A DNA stretch of 10,643 nt from Pseudomonadota bacterium (GTDB lineage Bacteria > Bdellovibrionota_B > Oligoflexia > Oligoflexales > CAIYRB01), in NCBI GenBank assembly GCA_031416315.1, contig JANOTL010000083.1, positions 1 through 10,643 on the forward strand, given 5' to 3'. The position numbers and the translations under genes are program-made. Below, piece by piece: positions 18-10,643 of the stretch; within the stretch, counting starts at the first letter, position 1; every line of letters starts with the position of its first letter. Under the pieces are notes generated by a model. The model saw only the letters and a list, made by a program, of their open reading frames with translations. It ran no database searches and had not been told where the DNA came from.

Positions 18-1169
<1,152 letters not shown>

Positions 1170-2296: not shown

Positions 2297-3286
2297 TTAG
2301 GCAAGTGAGGCTCTCTTGCGGGCGCCGTAAGCGGCGCGGATCGCGGACAGGCAGAACGCGGCTTCGGTCAGATTCTCGCCGCGCCGTAGGCCCGAGCACT
2401 CGGCTTCGAAAGACGGCCACATCGCGGCGAGCCACTCGGGGTGCGCGGAGCCGCCGGACAGCTTCTCGGGAAATTGAATCGTCTCCTCGACGCCGTCGGC
2501 CTTGATGATGAGAGCGTCATCGCGAAGTTCCGCGGAGCCGCGTTCGCCCGTGACGAAAGCGGAGTTGGAGCGCTCGCCGGCACGCCACGAAAGATGCATC
2601 GTGCCGGTCGCGAGCGGTGCGCTGAAAAGGGCGGTGGCGACTTCATCCACGGAAGATAGGGGTTGGAGCACGACGTCTACGAGCTGAAGCTTCGGGCCGA
2701 GGAGACGACGCATGAGATAGAGATTGTGCCAACCGTGGTCGACGAAAATGCCGCCGCCGGAAATCGCCGGGTCTTTGCGCCAGTCGTTCGGCGAAGCCGA
2801 AAGAGACGGCCGCGTGCGAAGCACGCGAATATCGGCGTGGCGAATAGCGCCAAGCCGCCCGGATGCCGCGACCTCGAGCAGGCGCGACCATTGCGGTGAA
2901 AAAGCCCAGTTGTTTATCGAGTAAACGCAGACGTTCCTTGCTTCAGACTCGGTTTGGATTTGGGAAAAAGTCTCGGGATCCAAGGTGAGCGGCTTCTCAC
3001 ACAGGACGTGAAGGCCCGCGCGTATGCCCGACAAAACTCCGTTGCCGTGAAAGCTTGGCGGAGAACAAACGACGAGGGCGTCGAGTGACTTCTCCGCCGA
3101 CAGCAAGGCTTCGACGGAGTCATAAACCCGCGCGGACGGCAACGACTTTTTCGCCGCTTCGCGGCGCAACGGCGACGGCTCGGCTACGGCATCAACTTTT
3201 ACCATGCAGGCACGGAGGGCCGACAGATGGGCGCCCTCGGCGATGGCGCCGAACCCAACCAAGCCGACGGAGCTTATCTTGCTCAG
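2297..3286 (-). CDS. Gfo/Idh/MocA-family NAD(P)-dependent oxidoreductase (inositol/sugar dehydrogenase-like)
   Basis: Rossmann SVGLVGFGAIA, HVLCEKPL and WRKDPAISGGGIFVDHGWH motifs. The ORF track starts at TTG 3262, inside beta-strand 1. A CTG at 3286 overlapping the upstream stop (CTGA) is the more plausible start, so the start position is uncertain. Confidence 0.88.
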   Translation of the reverse strand: MSKISSVGLVGFGAIAEGAHLSALRACMVKVDAVAEPSPLRREAAKKSLPSARVYDSVEALLSAEKSLDALVVCSPPSFHGNGVLSGIRAGLHVLCEKPLTLDPETFSQIQTESEARNVCVYSINNWAFSPQWSRLLEVAASGRLGAIRHADIRVLRTRPSLSASPNDWRKDPAISGGGIFVDHGWHNLYLMRRLLGPKLQLVDVVLQPLSSVDEVATALFSAPLATGTMHLSWRAGERSNSAFVTGERGSAELRDDALIIKADGVEETIQFPEKLSGGSAHPEWLAAMWPSFEAECSGLRRGENLTEAAFCLSAIRAAYGARKRASLA

Positions 3287-4626
3287 AGTGAGCGCCTCTT
3301 CTGAACGACCTGCATCGCATCGGCCATGAGATCGAGGCCGTCGAGCGCTTGCTTCTCGGTGATGACGAGAGGCGGGTTGATGCGCAAGGACGGGTTATAA
3401 GCCATAGTCAACACGCCGCGCTTTAATCCCTCTTCAAAAATCTCCCGACAAATGGCTTTGTCGAGTGGTTTTTTGTCCAACGGATTGATCAAGTCCACTC
3501 CGATCATAAGTCCCCGACCACGGAGCGAGCCGATCAACGGCTGCTTCTCTTTAATCTCAGTCAGGCGCCGGAGCATCGCCGCTCCTACCGTCGCGGCGTT
3601 TTCGACGAGCTTATCACGCAAAATAATTTGCAGCGTCGTGTCGCAGGCGGCCGACGCCAACGGGTTGCCGCCGTAGGACGAAGACGACCCCGAGGGGTTC
3701 GACCACGGCTTGGCGTTCGCCATCTCGCTGCTCGTGACGACGCCCGAAACCGGGAATCCGCCGCCGAAGCCCTTGCCGATGGTCATCATGTCGGGAATGA
3801 CTCCCTCATGATCGCACCCGAACATCTTGCCCGTGCGTCCGAAGCCGGTGATCATTTCATCCGAGATGAAAACCGCGCCGATCTCCTTGGCGATCTCCTG
3901 CACGCCTTTGAAGAAGCCGGCGGGCGGGATCACGTTGCCGTTGGTTCCCTGAATGGGCTCAACGATGATCGCGGCCACGGCGCCCGTCGTCTCGCGTTTG
4001 ATCTTTTCGCGCAGGAACTCCAACGAATGAGCTCCGCAATCATGCGGCGCTATGGCGCCGAACGGACATTTTCTGCTGTCCGGGTAAGGGGAGAGGTGCA
4101 AGCCGGGCGCGGTCGCTCCATATCCGTTCTTGAAGCCGTCGTTGAGCAGACCCATGACTCCTTGCGTCTTGCCGTGGAATCCACCCCAAAATCCGATGAC
4201 TTCGAATTTCCCCGTCCTGCTCTTCGCGAGCCGCAGCGCGGCCTCGACGGCCTCGGCGCCCGACGAGTACAGCTGGCAGCGCGTGAGGCCCTTCGGCGTG
4301 ACGCTCGCCAAGGTCTTGAGGAAATTCACGCGGTGCGGCGAGGTGAAGGAACCGACCGCGGTTTTCGCGGCCTGCGCGCCGACGGCCTTGGCCCACTCTG
4401 GATGGCCGTAGCCCAGGGACGCGACGCCGATGCCGGCGACGAGGTCGAGGTATTCCTTGCCGTCCACGTCGCGCAGCGATGCGCCGCTTCCGCCGTCGAT
4501 GGCGAGTTGGGCGTACAGCGCGATGGTCTGGAGGCCGGGAGCGATGTACTCCTGCTCCTCAAGGAACATGGCCTTGGACTTCGGTCCGGCGGAATACGGA
4601 GCGTCGGTGAGCGTCTGAGGGGTCAT
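3283..4626 (-). CDS. class III PLP-dependent aminotransferase (GabT/ArgD-like fold, substrate unknown)
   Basis: DVDGKEYLDLVAGIGVASLGYGHP, SGAEAVEAALRLAK, FHGKT, IIVEPIQG, DEMITGFGRTG, PLP lysine in TIGKGFGGGFP, YGGNPLA, RGRGLMIGV and LRINPPLVI. Confidence 0.93.
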   Translation of the reverse strand: MTPQTLTDAPYSAGPKSKAMFLEEQEYIAPGLQTIALYAQLAIDGGSGASLRDVDGKEYLDLVAGIGVASLGYGHPEWAKAVGAQAAKTAVGSFTSPHRVNFLKTLASVTPKGLTRCQLYSSGAEAVEAALRLAKSRTGKFEVIGFWGGFHGKTQGVMGLLNDGFKNGYGATAPGLHLSPYPDSRKCPFGAIAPHDCGAHSLEFLREKIKRETTGAVAAIIVEPIQGTNGNVIPPAGFFKGVQEIAKEIGAVFISDEMITGFGRTGKMFGCDHEGVIPDMMTIGKGFGGGFPVSGVVTSSEMANAKPWSNPSGSSSSYGGNPLASAACDTTLQIILRDKLVENAATVGAAMLRRLTEIKEKQPLIGSLRGRGLMIGVDLINPLDKKPLDKAICREIFEEGLKRGVLTMAYNPSLRINPPLVITEKQALDGLDLMADAMQVVQKRRSL

Positions 4627-4632
4627 GTGAGT

Positions 4633-5475
4633 TTAGGCCTTCCTACCGGCGACCTGCCTCAGCCGGAGGCGAAGGCGGCGGGCGATCTGGACCGAGGCTT
4701 CGGCGCGCACGCGCGCGAAGCTCGGCCAGCTGTTGATGTCGATGATATAAATCTTTCCATCGGGAGTCACGATGGCGTCGCCGCCGAACACCTCGACCTT
4801 CACTGCCTGGGCGGCGAGCTCGGCCTGGGCGGCGAGGTCCTCGAGCTCGAAAGGGAGGCGGCGGGCGGTGGAGGGATCGTGATAGAACCAGGTGAACCAT
4901 TGGCCGGGTCCGACGCCGTAAAACTTGATGAGGTCGCCGTCGGTGTGGCGCTGGATCACGAGGTCCTTGATCTCGCGGCTCTCGAATTCGCGGCGGATGT
5001 GCTCCGCCTCCTTCCAGTCCTTGGCGAAGACCACGTCGAAGGCGCAGGTGTTGTGCACGTCGCCGCGCTTGAGCCACCAGCCGCCGTCGGCTTCGTAGGA
5101 GGGAGGAACCTTGTTCGCCTCGGCCGTAGTGCGGCGGACCTCGGTGGGCGGGTAGGAGAGGCCGGTCGTGTTCACGAAGGACTCGAGCATGCGCGTGCGG
5201 TAGCAGCCGAGCACGGAGTCCGCCGGGTTGACTGTGACGACTCCGGTCTCCTCCTCGATCTTCTTAAGCCGCATCAGACGGGGGTAGGTTTCACACATCG
5301 GGACGATGAGGTCGTATCCTTTGGCGTCCGCGCGGTCGAATTCCTCCGGCGTCATAACGGTCGTTTCAGTCTTTAAAATGGAGAGCTGGTCCATCACGGC
5401 CTTCAGGATCAGGGCGTCGTCGCTCTCGCGGCCGGGGGAGTTCTGAGTTTCGCGCAAAATGCCGAGGGCTTTCAT
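4633..5475 (-). CDS. ATP-grasp fold protein of unknown function
   Basis: WWLKRGDVH (ATP-binding Lys), LVIQRHTDGDLIKFYGVG and C-terminal FGGDAIVTPDGKIYIIDINSWPSF (D...D-x-N metal site). ATGA overlap with the upstream gene. Confidence 0.8.
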   Translation of the reverse strand: MKALGILRETQNSPGRESDDALILKAVMDQLSILKTETTVMTPEEFDRADAKGYDLIVPMCETYPRLMRLKKIEEETGVVTVNPADSVLGCYRTRMLESFVNTTGLSYPPTEVRRTTAEANKVPPSYEADGGWWLKRGDVHNTCAFDVVFAKDWKEAEHIRREFESREIKDLVIQRHTDGDLIKFYGVGPGQWFTWFYHDPSTARRLPFELEDLAAQAELAAQAVKVEVFGGDAIVTPDGKIYIIDINSWPSFARVRAEASVQIARRLRLRLRQVAGRKA

Positions 5476-6170
5476 CGCTTCGTCTCCGTGGTGAGGAATG
5501 CCTCGGCGGCGGCCACGTCCTCGGGCCGGTCCACGTCGAGGGATTTGGACAGCAGCACGCCGGCCACGCGGGCTTCGGCCGCGAGCGCGGACAGGAAATC
5601 ACGCAGGCGGCCGTGCGCGTTCGCGGCGGGCAGGCGCTTTGCGGCTGCGCCGGTCATGTAGTAAAGGCCGCACGTCACGAAGCGGCGCGTCTTGGCGTCG
5701 GGTCCGAGGGCGCGCACGAGGCCGACCTCGTCGACGTCCGCGTAAAGGGGTTTCTCGTCGTCGACGTGCGCCGTCAAGGCCAAGCCGGCCTCGGCGCGAG
5801 ACGCGCGGCATTCGTTGATGAAGCGCGCCGTGTCTTCAGGTTTGACCAGAGCGTCGACGGTGCTGATGACGAAGTCTTTCGCCGTTTCGGCGAGACGCAA
5901 AGACACCAGCCGGAACGACTCGAACGATGAGGCGGTGTCGGCCGTGACGAAATCGAAGGACACATCCGGGAACGCGGCGGTGAGATAGGCGCTGACGGAG
6001 CCGCCGCGTGAATTGGTCAGAACGACGATTTCTTTACACCCGGACGAGCGCAATCCGACGACCACCCAGTAGATGAGCGGCTTCGCCGCTATTTTAATCA
6101 TTGGCTTGATCTCGCCGACGGCAGCCAAGCGGGAACCTTCACCTGCCGCGATGATGCCGGCGCGGATCAC
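5472..6170 (-). CDS. nucleotidyltransferase (NTP_transferase family; candidate inositol-phosphate cytidylyltransferase)
   Basis: N-terminal AGIIAAGEGSRL...KPMIKIAAKPLI loop, ISTVD and C-terminal LDVDRPED. True start is GTG at 6170 (GTGA overlap with the HAD stop), not 6323. Confidence 0.88.
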   Translation of the reverse strand: MIRAGIIAAGEGSRLAAVGEIKPMIKIAAKPLIYWVVVGLRSSGCKEIVVLTNSRGGSVSAYLTAAFPDVSFDFVTADTASSFESFRLVSLRLAETAKDFVISTVDALVKPEDTARFINECRASRAEAGLALTAHVDDEKPLYADVDEVGLVRALGPDAKTRRFVTCGLYYMTGAAAKRLPAANAHGRLRDFLSALAAEARVAGVLLSKSLDVDRPEDVAAAEAFLTTETKR

Positions 6171-6832
6171 TTCAGCACCCCTTCGAGCTCCGTGACCGAA
6201 CGGATCGTCCAATCCTGGCCCGCGTCCGGCGCATTTTTCGCCGTGGTGATCAGCGCCTTCTTCATGCCGACACCCGTCGCGCCGGCCATGTCGCGCTTGA
6301 TCGAATCGCCGACCATCACGCATTCATTGGGCGCGGCCTGGCAGGCATTCGCGGCATGGAGAAAGATGCCCGGCTCCGGCTTGATCACGCCGAGCACGCC
6401 GGAGTCCGCGACGACCGAGAACAGCGGCCTCAGCCCTTCCGCGCTCAGGATGCCGTCCAGATTGCCGTAGAAATTCGACACGACGCCCAGCTGGTAGCGC
6501 TTCGCCAGCCGTTCCAATACGGGCGTCAGCTGCTTGAAGTGGGCCCGGCAGTCGCCGGTGAAGCGGCCCGCGACCGGCTCGATGAGGTCGCGGCGGTCTG
6601 GGGCCACCGCCATGATGACGTCCGTCACCTGCAGGCGGACGGTCTGGGCCAGGTCGAGGCCCTTAAGGGCATGGCGCGTGTGGAGGTTGTCGTCGGAGTC
6701 GTAGAAGGCGCGCTCGAGGCGCTCCAAGGGGGCTTCGAGGCCGGCTTCCTTATAAAGGGGGAGGAAACGCTCGAGCCAGGTGGTGCCGTCGGCATCGAGG
6801 GTCCCCCCATAGTCGAACAGCAGGGACTTCAT
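6167..6832 (-). CDS. HAD-IA family hydrolase (phosphatase)
   Basis: Motif I LFDYGGTLD, motif II VVSN, motif III KPEPGIF and motif IV VGDSIKRD. Confidence 0.92.
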   Translation of the reverse strand: MKSLLFDYGGTLDADGTTWLERFLPLYKEAGLEAPLERLERAFYDSDDNLHTRHALKGLDLAQTVRLQVTDVIMAVAPDRRDLIEPVAGRFTGDCRAHFKQLTPVLERLAKRYQLGVVSNFYGNLDGILSAEGLRPLFSVVADSGVLGVIKPEPGIFLHAANACQAAPNECVMVGDSIKRDMAGATGVGMKKALITTAKNAPDAGQDWTIRSVTELEGVLK

Positions 6833-7033: not shown

Positions 7034-8176
7034 ATGCCTAAGCTCGAAGAGGTCAAGGAGAAGCTCGGAGCCCTGAAAGGGCTCGCGGAGATGTTCCTTG
7101 GCCCCAAGGACGTCGTCGGCATCGACGTCGGATCTTACTCGGTCAAGGTCGTCCTCTTTAAGCTCGAGGCCGGCGCGTACACGCTCAAGGCCTGGGGCCA
7201 GCTGCCCCTGGGCGCGAAGGCGGACGCGGGCCCCGACGAGAAAAAGGCGGCCGTGGTCAATTTGCTGCGCGCCTTCTTCATCGAAAAAGGCGTCAAGGTC
7301 AAGGAAGTCTCCACCTCTTTGTCGGGCAACGCCGTCATCGTGCGCTACGTCAAGTTCCCGCGCCTGACGAAGACCGAGCTCCAGTCGACTTTGGCGACCG
7401 AGGCCGAGCCCTTCATCCCTTTCGACATCAACGAAGTCCAGCTCAGCTTCCACATCCTCAGCGAGATCGTCGAGGACGGCCAGAAGAAGATGGAGACCGT
7501 GCTCGTTGCGGCCAAGCGCGACCTTGTCCAGCAGCGTCTCGAGATCCTGCAGGGCGCCGGGCTGGTCCCGACCATCATCGACGTCGACAGCTTCGCCCTC
7601 GAGAACATCCACGAGAAGACGCGCGACGCGAAGGAAGGCCCTGGCGCGACGCTGTACCTGAACATCGGCCACATGGTGACGAACCTCTCGATCGTCGAGA
7701 ACGGCGTCACGCGCGTCGTGCGCGACATGTTCATCTCGGGCAACACTTTGACGAAGGCGATCATGAAGGCGTTCCAGTGCGACGCGGCCCGCGCCGAGGA
7801 GCTCAAGCACTCGCGCGGCGTGTTCGTCGATCCCGCCGAGAAGGAAAAGGCGCTCGCCGACGGAGACCGCGACGGCCTGGGCGTATCGCAGGCGGTCGGC
7901 CAGGTCGCGCGCGACCTCGTCGCCGAGGTCCATCGCTCCGTCGACTTCTACCTGTCGCAGGGCCCCGACCGCTCGATCGGCCGGATCATGCTCGCGGGCG
8001 GCACCGCGCGCCTCAAGAATCTCGACAAGCACCTCGCGCAAGAGCTCAAGGTGCCCGTCTCGGTCCTAAACCCTTTCGCGTTCGCCAAGGGCGGGGACGC
8101 CGTGCCCGAAGCGCTGGCCCCCAGCTTCGGCGTGGCCGCCGGCCTTGCGCTGCGGTCGAACAGGGACTGGGAATAA
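7034..8176 (+). CDS. pilM: type IV pilus assembly protein PilM (actin/FtsA-like)
   Basis: VGIDVGSYSVKVV, EAEPFIPFDINEV, VLVAAKRD, IIDVDSFALEN, NIGHMVTNL, EVHRSVDFY and MLAGGTARL motifs; AAGGAG RBS; first gene of an M-N-O-P-Q order. Confidence 0.95.
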   Translation: MPKLEEVKEKLGALKGLAEMFLGPKDVVGIDVGSYSVKVVLFKLEAGAYTLKAWGQLPLGAKADAGPDEKKAAVVNLLRAFFIEKGVKVKEVSTSLSGNAVIVRYVKFPRLTKTELQSTLATEAEPFIPFDINEVQLSFHILSEIVEDGQKKMETVLVAAKRDLVQQRLEILQGAGLVPTIIDVDSFALENIHEKTRDAKEGPGATLYLNIGHMVTNLSIVENGVTRVVRDMFISGNTLTKAIMKAFQCDAARAEELKHSRGVFVDPAEKEKALADGDRDGLGVSQAVGQVARDLVAEVHRSVDFYLSQGPDRSIGRIMLAGGTARLKNLDKHLAQELKVPVSVLNPFAFAKGGDAVPEALAPSFGVAAGLALRSNRDWE

Positions 8177-8182
8177 CCGCAG

Positions 8183-8731
8183 ATGATCAAGGTTAACTTA
8201 GTCCCCGCGGAGCTCCTCGCCAAGGCCAAGCAGCGCCAGCTGCTGATGCAGGCCGTGGTGCTGGGAAGCCTCATGGCGTTGATCCTCGTGGTTGTTTCCT
8301 TCGGCCATTGGTACGGTAAGCGCACGCTCGAGGTGCGGCTCGCCTACGCCGAGTCGGAGCTTCAGCGCCTAGACCGGATCGTCAAGCAGGTCGAGGAGCT
8401 CGAGAAGGCCGCCGCCGCCGTGCGCGCCCGCCTGGGCGTGATCGAGAATCTCCTGCTCGGCCGCGCGTATTACCCCATCTTCATGTCGGAGTTCGCCCGT
8501 ACCGTTCCCGGCGGCGTTCGCGTGAACACGATGACCACCGGAAGCGGATCCGCGGTCGGCACGATCAGGCTCTCCATCGGCGCCATCGCCAACTCCAACG
8601 AGGACATCGCGGCCTGGGTCAAGACGATGGAAAAGAACACCCGCTTCGGCCTGATCGAACTCGGCGCGGTGACCGCGTCGGGTCCGACGCAATACGCCTT
8701 CACCATGACCGCGACGTACACGAGCAACTAA
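8183..8731 (+). CDS. pilN: type IV pilus assembly protein PilN
   Basis: N-terminal IKVNLVP (INLLP-type PilM-binding motif), a single TM helix, a coiled coil, then a ferredoxin-like periplasmic region; follows pilM. Confidence 0.9.
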   Translation: MIKVNLVPAELLAKAKQRQLLMQAVVLGSLMALILVVVSFGHWYGKRTLEVRLAYAESELQRLDRIVKQVEELEKAAAAVRARLGVIENLLLGRAYYPIFMSEFARTVPGGVRVNTMTTGSGSAVGTIRLSIGAIANSNEDIAAWVKTMEKNTRFGLIELGAVTASGPTQYAFTMTATYTSN

Positions 8732-8732
8732 C

Positions 8733-9278
8733 ATGGCCATGCAACTCTCGAAGCAGGAAAAACAATACCTCGGCGCGGGCGCCGTGCTGTTCATCGTCTT
8801 CAGCGTCGTCTATGTCAAGTTCTTCTGGCTGCCGATCAAGGTGGCCAAGGAAGAGGCGACGGCGAAGATCGAGGCGATCGAGGCCAAGATCGTGAAGGCC
8901 AAGCAGCAGGCGGCCCGGCTCGAGCGTCTGCAGGCCGAGATCGCGAGCCTCAACGAGCGCGCGGCCGAGGCCGAGAAGAAGCTGCCGAAGACGAAGTCCG
9001 TGCCCGACATTCTTCTGTCCCTTTCCGCGCTCGCGCAAAAGAGCCGGGTGACCATTCAGAGCTTCGCTCCGGGCCCGCAGAAAACCCAGACTTATTTCAT
9101 CGAGCTGAACTATCCGTTGTCGATCCGCGGGTCGTACCACAACATCGGCCGTTTCCTGGCCGCGCTGTCGCTCGAGGAACGCATTTTCAACATCAAGGAC
9201 ATCAACTATCCGACGACGGACGCCAACGGCGAGATGACCGTGACGTTCACCTTGCTCTCGTACCAGTATAAAGGATGA
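8733..9278 (+). CDS. pilO: type IV pilus assembly protein PilO
   Basis: N-terminal TM helix, coiled coil, KLPKTKSVPDIL and YFIELNYPLSIRGSYHNIGRFLAALSLEERIFNI, typical of PilO. Confidence 0.92.
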   Translation: MAMQLSKQEKQYLGAGAVLFIVFSVVYVKFFWLPIKVAKEEATAKIEAIEAKIVKAKQQAARLERLQAEIASLNERAAEAEKKLPKTKSVPDILLSLSALAQKSRVTIQSFAPGPQKTQTYFIELNYPLSIRGSYHNIGRFLAALSLEERIFNIKDINYPTTDANGEMTVTFTLLSYQYKG

Positions 9279-9769
9279 TGATCACCACCATCGCTTTACT
9301 CCTCGCGACGTCCGGTCCCGCTTCGGCGGGGCCGGCGCCGTCGCCGGCCGCCGTCGCGGCCTCTACGAGCACCGCGCTGCCCTTAGGCGTCTCGACGCAG
9401 ACGGTCTCGACCATCTACACGGGCGATCGCTCGCGGGACCCCTTCATGCCGGCCGCGATGGGAGCCAAGTCCGCGCGCCGCGTCACCGACGAGAACAAAC
9501 CCGAAGGCCCCGAAGTCGTCGACATCCACGGAATGCAGCTTAAGGGCATTCTTAAGGACACGAAGATAGACTTCGCGTTGTTCTCCGCCGAGGCCGGCGG
9601 CTCCTACATTCTACGCGGCGGCAAGCTTTACAATGAGCGCAACAAGCAGGTCCCCGGCATCACCGGCAACATCAAAATAAAGCAGAAGACCGTGGAACTC
9701 ATCACCGCCGACAAGGACGTTCAGGTGTTCCGTCTCGGCGAGGAAGACAAAGAGAAGGAGAAGCGGTAG
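9275..9769 (+). CDS. pilP: PilP-like type IV pilus assembly protein (no lipobox)
   Basis: Located between pilO and pilQ with an ATGA overlap to pilO; hydrophobic N-terminus, low-complexity linker, RDPF motif and MQLKGIL...ALF beta-domain start. Confidence 0.72.
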   Translation: MMITTIALLLATSGPASAGPAPSPAAVAASTSTALPLGVSTQTVSTIYTGDRSRDPFMPAAMGAKSARRVTDENKPEGPEVVDIHGMQLKGILKDTKIDFALFSAEAGGSYILRGGKLYNERNKQVPGITGNIKIKQKTVELITADKDVQVFRLGEEDKEKEKR

Positions 9770-9782
9770 CCGCGGAGAATCT

Positions 9783-10643
9783 ATGATCAATCAATCCATG
9801 AAAAAAGCCCTGTCCGCGGCCCTCGCCGTCATCCTCGCGACCCCCGCGGGCGTCGTCCCGGCTTTCGCGGCGGACGCGGCGTCTCCGGCGGTGTTCCAGG
9901 GCATCACGGCGACGGATGACCTCGTCACGATCAAGCTCAGCACCTCCGTGATGTACAACAGCTTCCTGACGCAGACGCCGCCTCGCCTGGTGCTCGAACT
10001 GCTCGACACCAAACACGAAGGCCCGACGCAGTCCGCCAAGGGGAGGGGTCTGTTCCTCTCCGGCGTGCGCTCGAGCCAGTACGAAAAGACGCCGCGTCTG
10101 ATCACGCGCGTCGTGATGGACCTCGTGAAGATGGCGGGCTATAAGGTCGGCACGACGAAGGACGGCCTCACCGTCCAACTCGTCGGCTCCGTCGATGACG
10201 CTCCGACCTCCGCCGCGCCCGTCGCGCCGGCTCCGGTCGTCAAGCCGGTCGCCAAGCGCGCCGCCGCCGCGAAGGCTCAGGCCCCCGCTCCCGTGCCCGC
10301 CGCCGCGCCCGAGATGTCGGCCATCGACACTGCCGCCACCTCCGCCGCTCTCGCGCCGAGCATGAAGGCCGCCGACGCCGCTCCGAAGCCCAAGCCCCGC
10401 CTCAACATCACGGCCGCGCAGGCCATGAAGCGGGCCGGCCTCTCCGGAACCATGACCGAGGAACTGGCCGCCTCGGCCCAGGCCTCCGACATCACCAAGA
10501 CGAAGGTTGATCCCTCCGGAGAACCCGAGGAGGCGGACCGCACTACTCGCCCGGCCGGCGGACGCATCTTCCGCGACATCGTCAGCCGCTTGCCTCGCGA
10601 CATCGTGACCTTGGATTTCGACAACACCGACATCCGCGACGTC
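9783..10643 (+). CDS. pilQ: type IV pilus secretin PilQ, 5' part (runs off the window)
   Basis: Absent from the ORF track because it has no stop in the window. Translated by hand from ATG 9783 (GGAG RBS at 9774-9777): signal peptide MINQSMKKALSAALAVILATPAGVVPAFA, AMIN domain (YNSFLTQTPPRLVLELLDT...VRSSQY...TRVVMDL), a Pro/Ala/Lys linker, then secretin N0 start VTLDFDNTDIRDV at the window end. Confidence 0.88.
   Translation, partial: MINQSMKKALSAALAVILATPAGVVPAFAADAASPAVFQGITATDDLVTIKLSTSVMYNSFLTQTPPRLVLELLDTKHEGPTQSAKGRGLFLSGVRSSQYEKTPRLITRVVMDLVKMAGYKVGTTKDGLTVQLVGSVDDAPTSAAPVAPAPVVKPVAKRAAAAKAQAPAPVPAAAPEMSAIDTAATSAALAPSMKAADAAPKPKPRLNITAAQAMKRAGLSGTMTEELAASAQASDITKTKVDPSGEPEEADRTTRPAGGRIFRDIVSRLPRDIVTLDFDNTDIRDV

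Follow-up and report, generated by a model that had tools for sequence, protein, structure and literature searches.

The presence of an ATP-grasp gene in the same operon as a myo-inositol-phosphate synthase (MIPS) gene raises the question of whether its product is an inositol kinase or an amide ligase. The protein is encoded at positions 4633–5475 of the window, the whole stretch of 10,643 nucleotides that was analysed. A preliminary description made from the letters of this stretch proposed an inositol (poly)phosphate kinase resembling the eukaryotic enzyme ITPK1, with an amide ligase acylating the product of the adjacent aminotransferase as the alternative. In the available parts of two reports (PMC6900528, PMC8024741), kinases acting on inositol phosphates are assigned to eukaryotes and Asgard archaea. 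A bacterial ITPK-type kinase would shift the origin of the family and would model the ancestral reaction in a simple form.

Operon organization and origin of the contig

The ORF at 4633–5475 on the minus strand is a genuine ATP-grasp gene encoding 280 amino acids, and its product is predicted to be an inositol head-group kinase. It is the third gene of an operon of seven, all on the minus strand and including MIPS, in agreement with the preliminary description. The first gene encodes a HAD-family phosphatase (6167–6832; PF00702, 1e-15). The next encodes an NTP-transferase that is predicted to be a cytidylyltransferase (5472–6170; PF12804, 2.8e-10); its GTG start overlaps the HAD stop and its stop overlaps the ATP-grasp start, each overlap being four bases long. 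Following the ATP-grasp gene are a class III aminotransferase (3283–4626; PF00202, 1.6e-97), a Gfo/Idh/MocA dehydrogenase (2297–3262; PF01408, with IolG as the best NCBIfam match at 2.4e-18, far below its cut-off), a CDP-alcohol phosphotransferase with an extra N-terminal domain (1135–2304; PF01066, with NF041135 at 2e-22, below its cut-off) and MIPS (18–1169; PF07994, 3.6e-80; PF01658, 4e-34). The CDP-alcohol phosphotransferase is of the AF2299 or IPCT-DIPPS type (PDB 4o6m, 2e-23; 4mnd, 1.5e-10), and the NTP-transferase is no closer to IPCT (2xme, 2.4e-11) than to RmlA (6e-16) or GDP-mannose pyrophosphorylase (6e-15).

The final codons of the MIPS gene look aberrant, the frame stopping abruptly in FRRRRSS near the contig end (window 18–60), and the window MIPS is about 70 residues shorter than that of Phocaeicola vulgatus. 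This aberrant end is likely an assembly artefact. Divergent from the inositol operon, the plus strand at 7034–10643 carries an ordinary pilM-N-O-P-Q type IV pilus operon.

The window comprises an entire contig, the composition of which fits its assembly. A search of 115 further genomes from the assigned phylum detected no orthologue, and the PilM protein of the contig exhibits only 24–32% identity to those of same-genus and same-family genomes. The assembly holds two further PilM-like genes, that of the contig being the third; about 13–14 of 15 relatives have two and the remainder one. The closest named relatives of the ATP-grasp protein belong to Elusimicrobiota (68–91% identity). The contig probably derives from Elusimicrobiota and was mis-binned into another genome; because it looks foreign, the genome to which the window is assigned was not used as context.

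A widespread ATP-grasp family

Pfam analysis of the window protein alone gave a best E-value of 0.094 and no family name, and a single-sequence search of the PDB returned nothing significant. A search over representatives clustered at 50% identity recovered 868 proteins at E ≤0.001 and 585 at 1e-10. Matches in the ESM Atlas were headed by unnamed clusters, followed by RimK-labelled and Asgard ITPK clusters with similar scores, and viral contigs contained neither a relative of the family nor a match to the ITPK motif. The window protein is a member of a large, widespread and unnamed bacterial ATP-grasp family.

Conservation was read from an alignment of the window protein with 115 full-length relatives picked from the listed matches (n=116), mostly 28–41% identical. 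Eleven residues are invariant in 116/116 (R8, D20, R93, K136, G180, G231, G232, D233, D246, N248 and P251), and K184 and Y186 (115/116 each), W250 (113/116) and F253 (112/116) are nearly so. M60 is found in 112/116 and H141 in 93/116, and four conserved acids, D20, D139, D147 and D249, are specific to the family. The motifs quoted in the preliminary description are exact: IQRH at residues 174–177 (window 4945–4956), LIKFYGVG at 182–189 (4909–4932), GGD at 231–233 (4777–4785) and YIIDINSWPSF at 243–253 (4717–4749). Judged by their conservation across the alignment, the ITPK-type motifs exceed chance and are confirmed as a family-wide feature. The segment at 4717–4785, from GGD233 to D246-x-N248-x-W-P-S-F, is predicted from profile and conservation to form the metal-binding catalytic strands.

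Fold, profile and tree comparisons

The AlphaFold model of the window protein (pLDDT 96) confirmed the ATP-grasp fold. RimK/LysX amide ligases were the top VIA and Foldseek matches of the whole model, with VIA Z-scores of 22.6 for RimK, 22.2 for ArgX and within 22.1–22.6 for LysX (rmsd 2.7–3.2); these ligases (PF08443, TIGR00768, TIGR02144) have their size and three-domain layout in common with the window protein. The ITPK family (PF05770/PF17927; human 2qb5/2q7d, Entamoeba 1z2n, AtITPK4 7pup, StITPK1 8oxe, Asgard LcIKA-D) has the ATP-grasp fold in common with it and scored below the ligases (range 17.8–20.2: maize 20.2, StITPK1 19.4, human ITPK1 19.1, Entamoeba 18.1). The comparison of ITPK1 with RimK/LysX structures, named in advance as the test that could overturn the kinase proposal, therefore went partly against it, RimK/LysX ranking above ITPK (Z 22.6 vs 20.2). 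The model of the C-terminal half likewise scored higher with RimK (Z 8.9) than with ITPKs (5.9–6.4), whereas in the structural alignments of this half its identity was 21–24% to plant and human ITPKs and 11–14% to RimK/LysX.

A profile of the C-terminal half built from 60 sequences and run against the PDB ranked five ITPK sequences first, AtITPK4 at 2.6e-5 and four human ITPK1 sequences at 4e-4, with PsnB (0.014), Ddl (0.47), Entamoeba ITPK1 (0.51) and RimK (0.66) at lower ranks. With the full-length profile the ligase PsnB was first (1.2e-7) and AtITPK4 second (8.1e-7), and the profile-profile scores were level (eukaryotic ITPK 85, Asgard 87, LysX 90, RimK 86).

For tree building, ITPK-side sequences were taken from a metagenome scan by ITPK motif (126 stretches from 8 of 64 parts, of which 124 loci were read). 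Of these ITPK-motif proteins, 37 were classified by Pfam, and Asgard ITPKs plus LysX, RimK and Ddl from genome searches were added. In quick trees the family falls with eukaryotic ITPK, with Asgard ITPK and with a second group of bacterial proteins, away from RimK/LysX. The SH-aLRT value for this grouping was 91 (63 rows), 91 without four long-branch rows and 89 without the motif columns; the ITPK-side branch was never starred, and the ITPK-side sets had been gathered by the motif itself. In an AU test, a tree joining the family to RimK/LysX could not be rejected (p 0.31).

Catalytic and acceptor-site residues

In the alignments, K184 of the window protein falls on the ITPK K-x-[YF] motif, and the D246-x-N248 region on D-x-N-x-F-P. 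The LIKFYGVG strand thereby places K184 at the position of human ITPK1 K199, which is also that of the ligase Arg, with Y186 two residues on. K199 is given as an inositol-phosphate contact in ITPK1 in the available part of PMC6900528, and Lys198/Tyr200 of maize ITPK are noted in that of PMC7614388. The arginine of the first C-domain strand and E-x-N, which mark most amide ligases according to the available part of PMC4431377, are replaced here: the arginine is present in 1/116 and is Lys in 115/116, and E-x-N is D-x-N in 116/116. The glycine-rich loop of RimK/LysX occurs in 1/116 and the NxxxG[GA] loop in 0/116, vs 17/17 of LysX and 3–4 of 4 RimK-like proteins; these loops are absent from ITPK and the window family alike, and also from Ddl (0/3). 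NCBIfam scores fall far below their cut-offs (TIGR00768, 22.9 vs 143.4 bits; TIGR02144, 22 vs 275.6). With the RimK/LysX signatures absent and ITPKs heading the C-half profile search, the description of the catalytic strands as ITPK-like rather than RimK-like stands.

The acceptor pocket was compared from alignments, contacts being mapped via metagenomic eukaryotic ITPKs with human numbering assigned by motif spacing rather than by aligning a human sequence. Of the three most conserved inositol-phosphate contacts of ITPK1, H167, K199 and R212 (available part of PMC6900528), only K199 has a counterpart in the window family; at the H167 and R212 positions stand F146/D147 and a W-F-Y aromatic stretch instead. 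The K59 position is M60. H141 aligns at the H162 position, where animal-type ITPK1 carries a His five residues past its ATP Lys, and S252 stands for G301, likewise in AtITPK4 and one Asgard protein. The K18 region of ITPK is not alignable to the window family, though the invariant R8 lies nearby. W-P-S-F replaces the F-P-G-[YF] of ITPK, and the long tether insert found in ITPK is absent. Up to E 1, neither PF05770 (cut-off 23 bits) nor PF17927 matched the window protein, and PF05770 was matched weakly by 23/116 relatives (best E 0.0022). With the K59, H167 and R212 equivalents gone and PF05770 unmatched, membership of the ITPK family is unsupported, and the window protein stands outside it. 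By these alignments, it combines ITPK-type catalytic strands with a different and less basic acceptor site.

The D-I-N-x-aromatic-P pattern that had been taken as an ITPK sign is matched by the window protein, but it is less specific than supposed. D-x-N occurs in CDC123 as well (available part of PMC4431377), and two YheC/D-like ATP-grasp proteins (L082:2190-3260, L098:4002-5120) carry D-V-N-M-F-P-G-F together with the ligase Arg and loops, so the C-terminal ITPK motif does not by itself identify an ITPK. In the R2K/CDC123 clade, as far as the available part of PMC4431377 describes it, D-x-N stands in place of E-x-N as in the window family, and a second basic residue lies just past the strand-2 Lys, this being R137 in the window protein. 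R2K retains the ligase Arg (ExR, strand 5) and has no linker Lys/Arg, whereas the window family has Lys184 and the invariant R93. PF14243 was matched weakly by 8/116 relatives.

Conserved gene neighbourhood

Gene context is the strongest evidence on function. A scan of GTDB genomes gave at least 594 confirmed matches, of which the best 80 loci were kept; neighbours were read within at most 7 kb, many of the 80 loci being shorter. These best 80 of 594 loci span at least 12 named phyla, and the counts that follow refer to them. An NTP-transferase is present at 74, a CDP-alcohol phosphotransferase at 72 and a HAD protein at 69, which makes these three the core partners of the ATP-grasp gene and the NTP-transferase the tightest. 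The preliminary description had passed over all three. MIPS lies beside 41 loci, four of these matches being weak. The aminotransferase is found at 34 loci and the dehydrogenase at 31, and all 31 of the latter also hold the aminotransferase. The aminotransferase occurs at 1/40 Bacteroidota loci vs 33/40 others, and four Bacteroidota genomes with the ATP-grasp gene contain only aminotransferase paralogues (26–41%) and no orthologue, the positive control having one at 55%. Active-site residues are identical in family members with and without a neighbouring aminotransferase. The aminotransferase is an optional module, and likewise the dehydrogenase.

Eleven long matches were examined as fusions: seven are joined to an NTP-transferase, one to HAD plus NTP-transferase and one to a CDP-transferase, and two have no informative domain. 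At one further locus (L076) the ATP-grasp gene and the aminotransferase read as a single frame. A complex prediction for the NTP-transferase and the ATP-grasp protein scored 0.20, the mark being 0.32, and was set aside. In the P. vulgatus phylum, the ATP-grasp gene is present in 11 of 201 genomes; the NTP-transferase occurs in exactly these 11, each of which is also one of the 41 genomes with MIPS. No statistical test is given for this co-occurrence because the 11 genomes are kin and not independent.

Other genes adjoin the cluster at some of the best 80 of 594 loci. LPG_synthase_TM is found beside 37 and an SPT-like gene beside nine. At eight loci (L036, L041, L044, L054, L064, L071, L073, L079) SPT-like, acyltransferase-like and epimerase-family genes adjoin the cluster and resemble bacterial ceramide synthesis genes. 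MlaE/MlaD genes occur in Ignavibacteria-like loci. Two such loci carry tandem ATP-grasp duplicates (L255:6669-8358, L256:8831-10506), with MlaE/MlaF/MlaD-like genes between the ATP-grasp gene and the NTP-transferase; overall, tandem ATP-grasp paralogues were present in 2/7 fetched loci.

A TM0415-like inositol kinase (PfkB) lies beside eight of the best 80 of 594 loci, including that of P. vulgatus (L038:11786-12682, minus strand), where it pairs with an MFS transporter as a probable inositol salvage pair. TM0415 makes Ins1P, and a change at S89 is tied to a non-Ins1P product in the available part of PMC5931981. In the P. vulgatus protein, Gln replaces S89 and the PPi-specific arginines are missing (alignment read by hand with an assumed 12-residue offset), and on these grounds the idea of taking this neighbour as a sign of D-Ins1P input was dropped.

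Relation to published inositol-lipid systems

The orthologue of the ATP-grasp protein in P. vulgatus ATCC 8482 (L038:6992-7843) is 34% identical and is encoded between the NTP-transferase and the CDP-transferase. This locus corresponds to the "alternative inositol lipid cluster" of Bacteroidetes reported by Heaver et al. 2022 (PMC9246714), the available part of which names BVU_RS13095, RS13105 and RS13115. The ATP-grasp orthologue is probably RS13100, an assignment that follows from locus-tag spacing. The text and eight supplementary files of PMC9246714 gave no matches for "ATP-grasp", "RimK" or "RS13100", figure labels lying outside the search, and no description of the ATP-grasp gene was found in the open literature. 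In the available part of the same paper, the proposed pathway activates the MIPS product directly and is called unconfirmed, and P. vulgatus is reported to make PI-DHC, the lipids being plain PI-DAG/PI-DHC; a search of its text did not find the stereochemistry of these inositol lipids.

The published cluster and the window have the NTP-transferase, CDP-alcohol phosphotransferase, HAD and MIPS genes in common, the window genes being homologous to those of P. vulgatus. The window adds the dehydrogenase and aminotransferase to this set, and the cluster is found in at least 12 phyla rather than in Bacteroidetes alone. The ATP-grasp family is a core and previously unreported part of the proposed bacterial inositol-lipid gene set, including that of common gut bacteria. 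The IPCT/DIPPS and IPCT/BEPIS routes of Archaeoglobus and Rhodothermus have the CDP-inositol logic in common with the window, as reflected in its phosphotransferase. The partially available sources on these routes describe direct use of the MIPS product and no kinase step, which means that a kinase is not chemically required. According to the available part of PMC6900528, both Ins3P and Ins1P are substrates of ITPK1, and MIPS is flanked by ITPK genes in Asgard archaea. The window family resembles these archaeal genes in its linkage to MIPS and, unlike ITPK, has an NTP-transferase and a CDP-alcohol phosphotransferase as fixed partners.

Predicted function and alternatives

From its catalytic residues and gene context, the window protein is probably a kinase for an inositol head-group precursor that adds a single phosphate, and not a maker of polyphosphates. 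The kinase part of the original proposal, acting on MIPS-derived inositol, remains the best reading; polyphosphate synthesis is not supported, the K59, H167 and R212 equivalents being missing. Within this reading, the substrate may be Ins3P or an amino derivative of it. A neighbouring TM0415-like kinase suggests that free inositol has its own kinase at those loci, which favours an inositol phosphate (Ins3P) as the substrate of the ATP-grasp enzyme. Free inositol or inosamine, reached after the HAD step, is a less likely substrate.

In the proposed route, MIPS forms D-inositol 3-phosphate, and we infer the subsequent steps as follows. The ATP-grasp enzyme would transfer ATP's gamma-phosphate onto a ring hydroxyl, most likely at D-1, with D233, D246 and N248 holding two metal ions and with K184 and Y186 beside the acceptor. 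The NTP-transferase would activate the newly added phosphate to give a CDP-linked donor, the CDP-alcohol phosphotransferase would pass the donor head group to diacylglycerol or ceramide, and the HAD phosphatase would strip the original 3-phosphate. Kinase and phosphatase together would produce a net move of the phosphate, a step missing from the published model. Both the D-1 assignment and the step order are conjecture. Ordinary phosphatidylinositol is D-1 linked. In the window operon, the dehydrogenase and aminotransferase may aminate the ring to give an amino-inositol head group, by analogy with aminocyclitol pathways. The aminotransferase-bearing version of the cluster predicts such a head group, and none was found in a literature search. 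In gut Bacteroidales such as P. vulgatus, the kinase would fill a gap in the main, unconfirmed inositol-lipid route.

A bolder proposal, which we regard as doubtful, is that at least 12 bacterial phyla contain a true inositol-phosphate kinase from the lineage ancestral to the ITPK1 enzymes of Asgard archaea and eukaryotes, that an inositol bisphosphate made from the MIPS product leads to phosphorylated inositol lipids, and that operons like that of the window make an undescribed amino-inositol phospholipid. If true, inositol-phosphate kinase chemistry would predate eukaryotes and Asgard archaea and extend beyond them.

Several other functions were weighed against the single-phosphate kinase. 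A ligase attaching a carboxylate such as an amino acid to the inositol head group or to the completed lipid, through a hydroxyl or through an amine that does not come from the neighbouring aminotransferase, is unlikely, even though the fold is nearest to RimK/LysX/ArgX, the AU test leaves a ligase clade unrejected (p 0.31) and LPG_synthase_TM adjoins 37 of the best 80 of 594 loci. Ddl also lacks the RimK loops (0/3), and absence of these loops does not, therefore, exclude ligation. The Lys that replaces the ligase Arg of PMC4431377 (available part) in 115/116 and the D-x-N, not E-x-N, of all 116 argue against such a ligase, as do the plain PI-DAG/PI-DHC lipids reported for P. vulgatus in the available part of PMC9246714. 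The narrower idea raised at the outset, an amide ligase acylating the inosamine produced by the adjacent aminotransferase, is hardly to be expected. It would suit the adjacency of the two genes in the window, the 33/40 non-Bacteroidota loci (best 80 of 594) with an aminotransferase and the single frame at L076, and it is weakened because the aminotransferase is optional: only 1/40 Bacteroidota loci among the same 80 hold one, four Bacteroidota genomes with the ATP-grasp gene offer only 26–41% paralogues where the control recovered a 55% orthologue, and the active-site residues are the same with or without it.

The enzyme could instead be a phosphotransferase for a different step, with CDP-inositol or the lipid head group as its substrate, or could run in reverse as a shuttle passing phosphate from inositol phosphate to ADP. 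Plant ITPKs are reversible phosphotransferases according to partially available sources, the single fusions to a CDP-transferase and to HAD plus NTP-transferase would fit such a role, and the tandem paralogues of 2/7 fetched loci could serve two steps. This placement is nonetheless improbable, since the NTP-transferase is both the direct gene neighbour and the partner in 7/11 long-match fusions, which points to the substrate of the NTP-transferase. Very unlikely is a true ITPK-like multikinase producing soluble polyphosphates of inositol (InsP3 to InsP5) in bacteria. The ITPK-type catalytic residues, the C-half profile, the linkage to MIPS as in Asgard archaea and the grouping with ITPKs in three trees are consistent with it; against it stand the absent K59, H167 and R212 equivalents, the conserved family-specific acids D20, D139, D147 and D249, the lack of a PF05770 match at E up to 1, and the binding of the gene to an activation-and-transfer module rather than a stand-alone position.

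A second bacterial ITPK-like group

The second bacterial group of ITPK-like ATP-grasp proteins (L108, L113, L121, L132, L142, L159 and other scan loci; L262, L263) lies nearer to ITPK than the window family does. Its members feature K-x-Y-V-[VI]-G, D-V-N-x-F-P-G-[FY] and a Lys at the K59 position, and many are above the PF05770 cut-off. The group is a stronger candidate than the window family for an inositol polyphosphate kinase of bacteria; because the scan searched for the motif, its presence in the group is a product of selection. Several paralogues occur per locus, together with APH-type kinases, mannitol dehydrogenase and MFS transporters, and an inositol monophosphatase is present at L121 and MIPS at L108.
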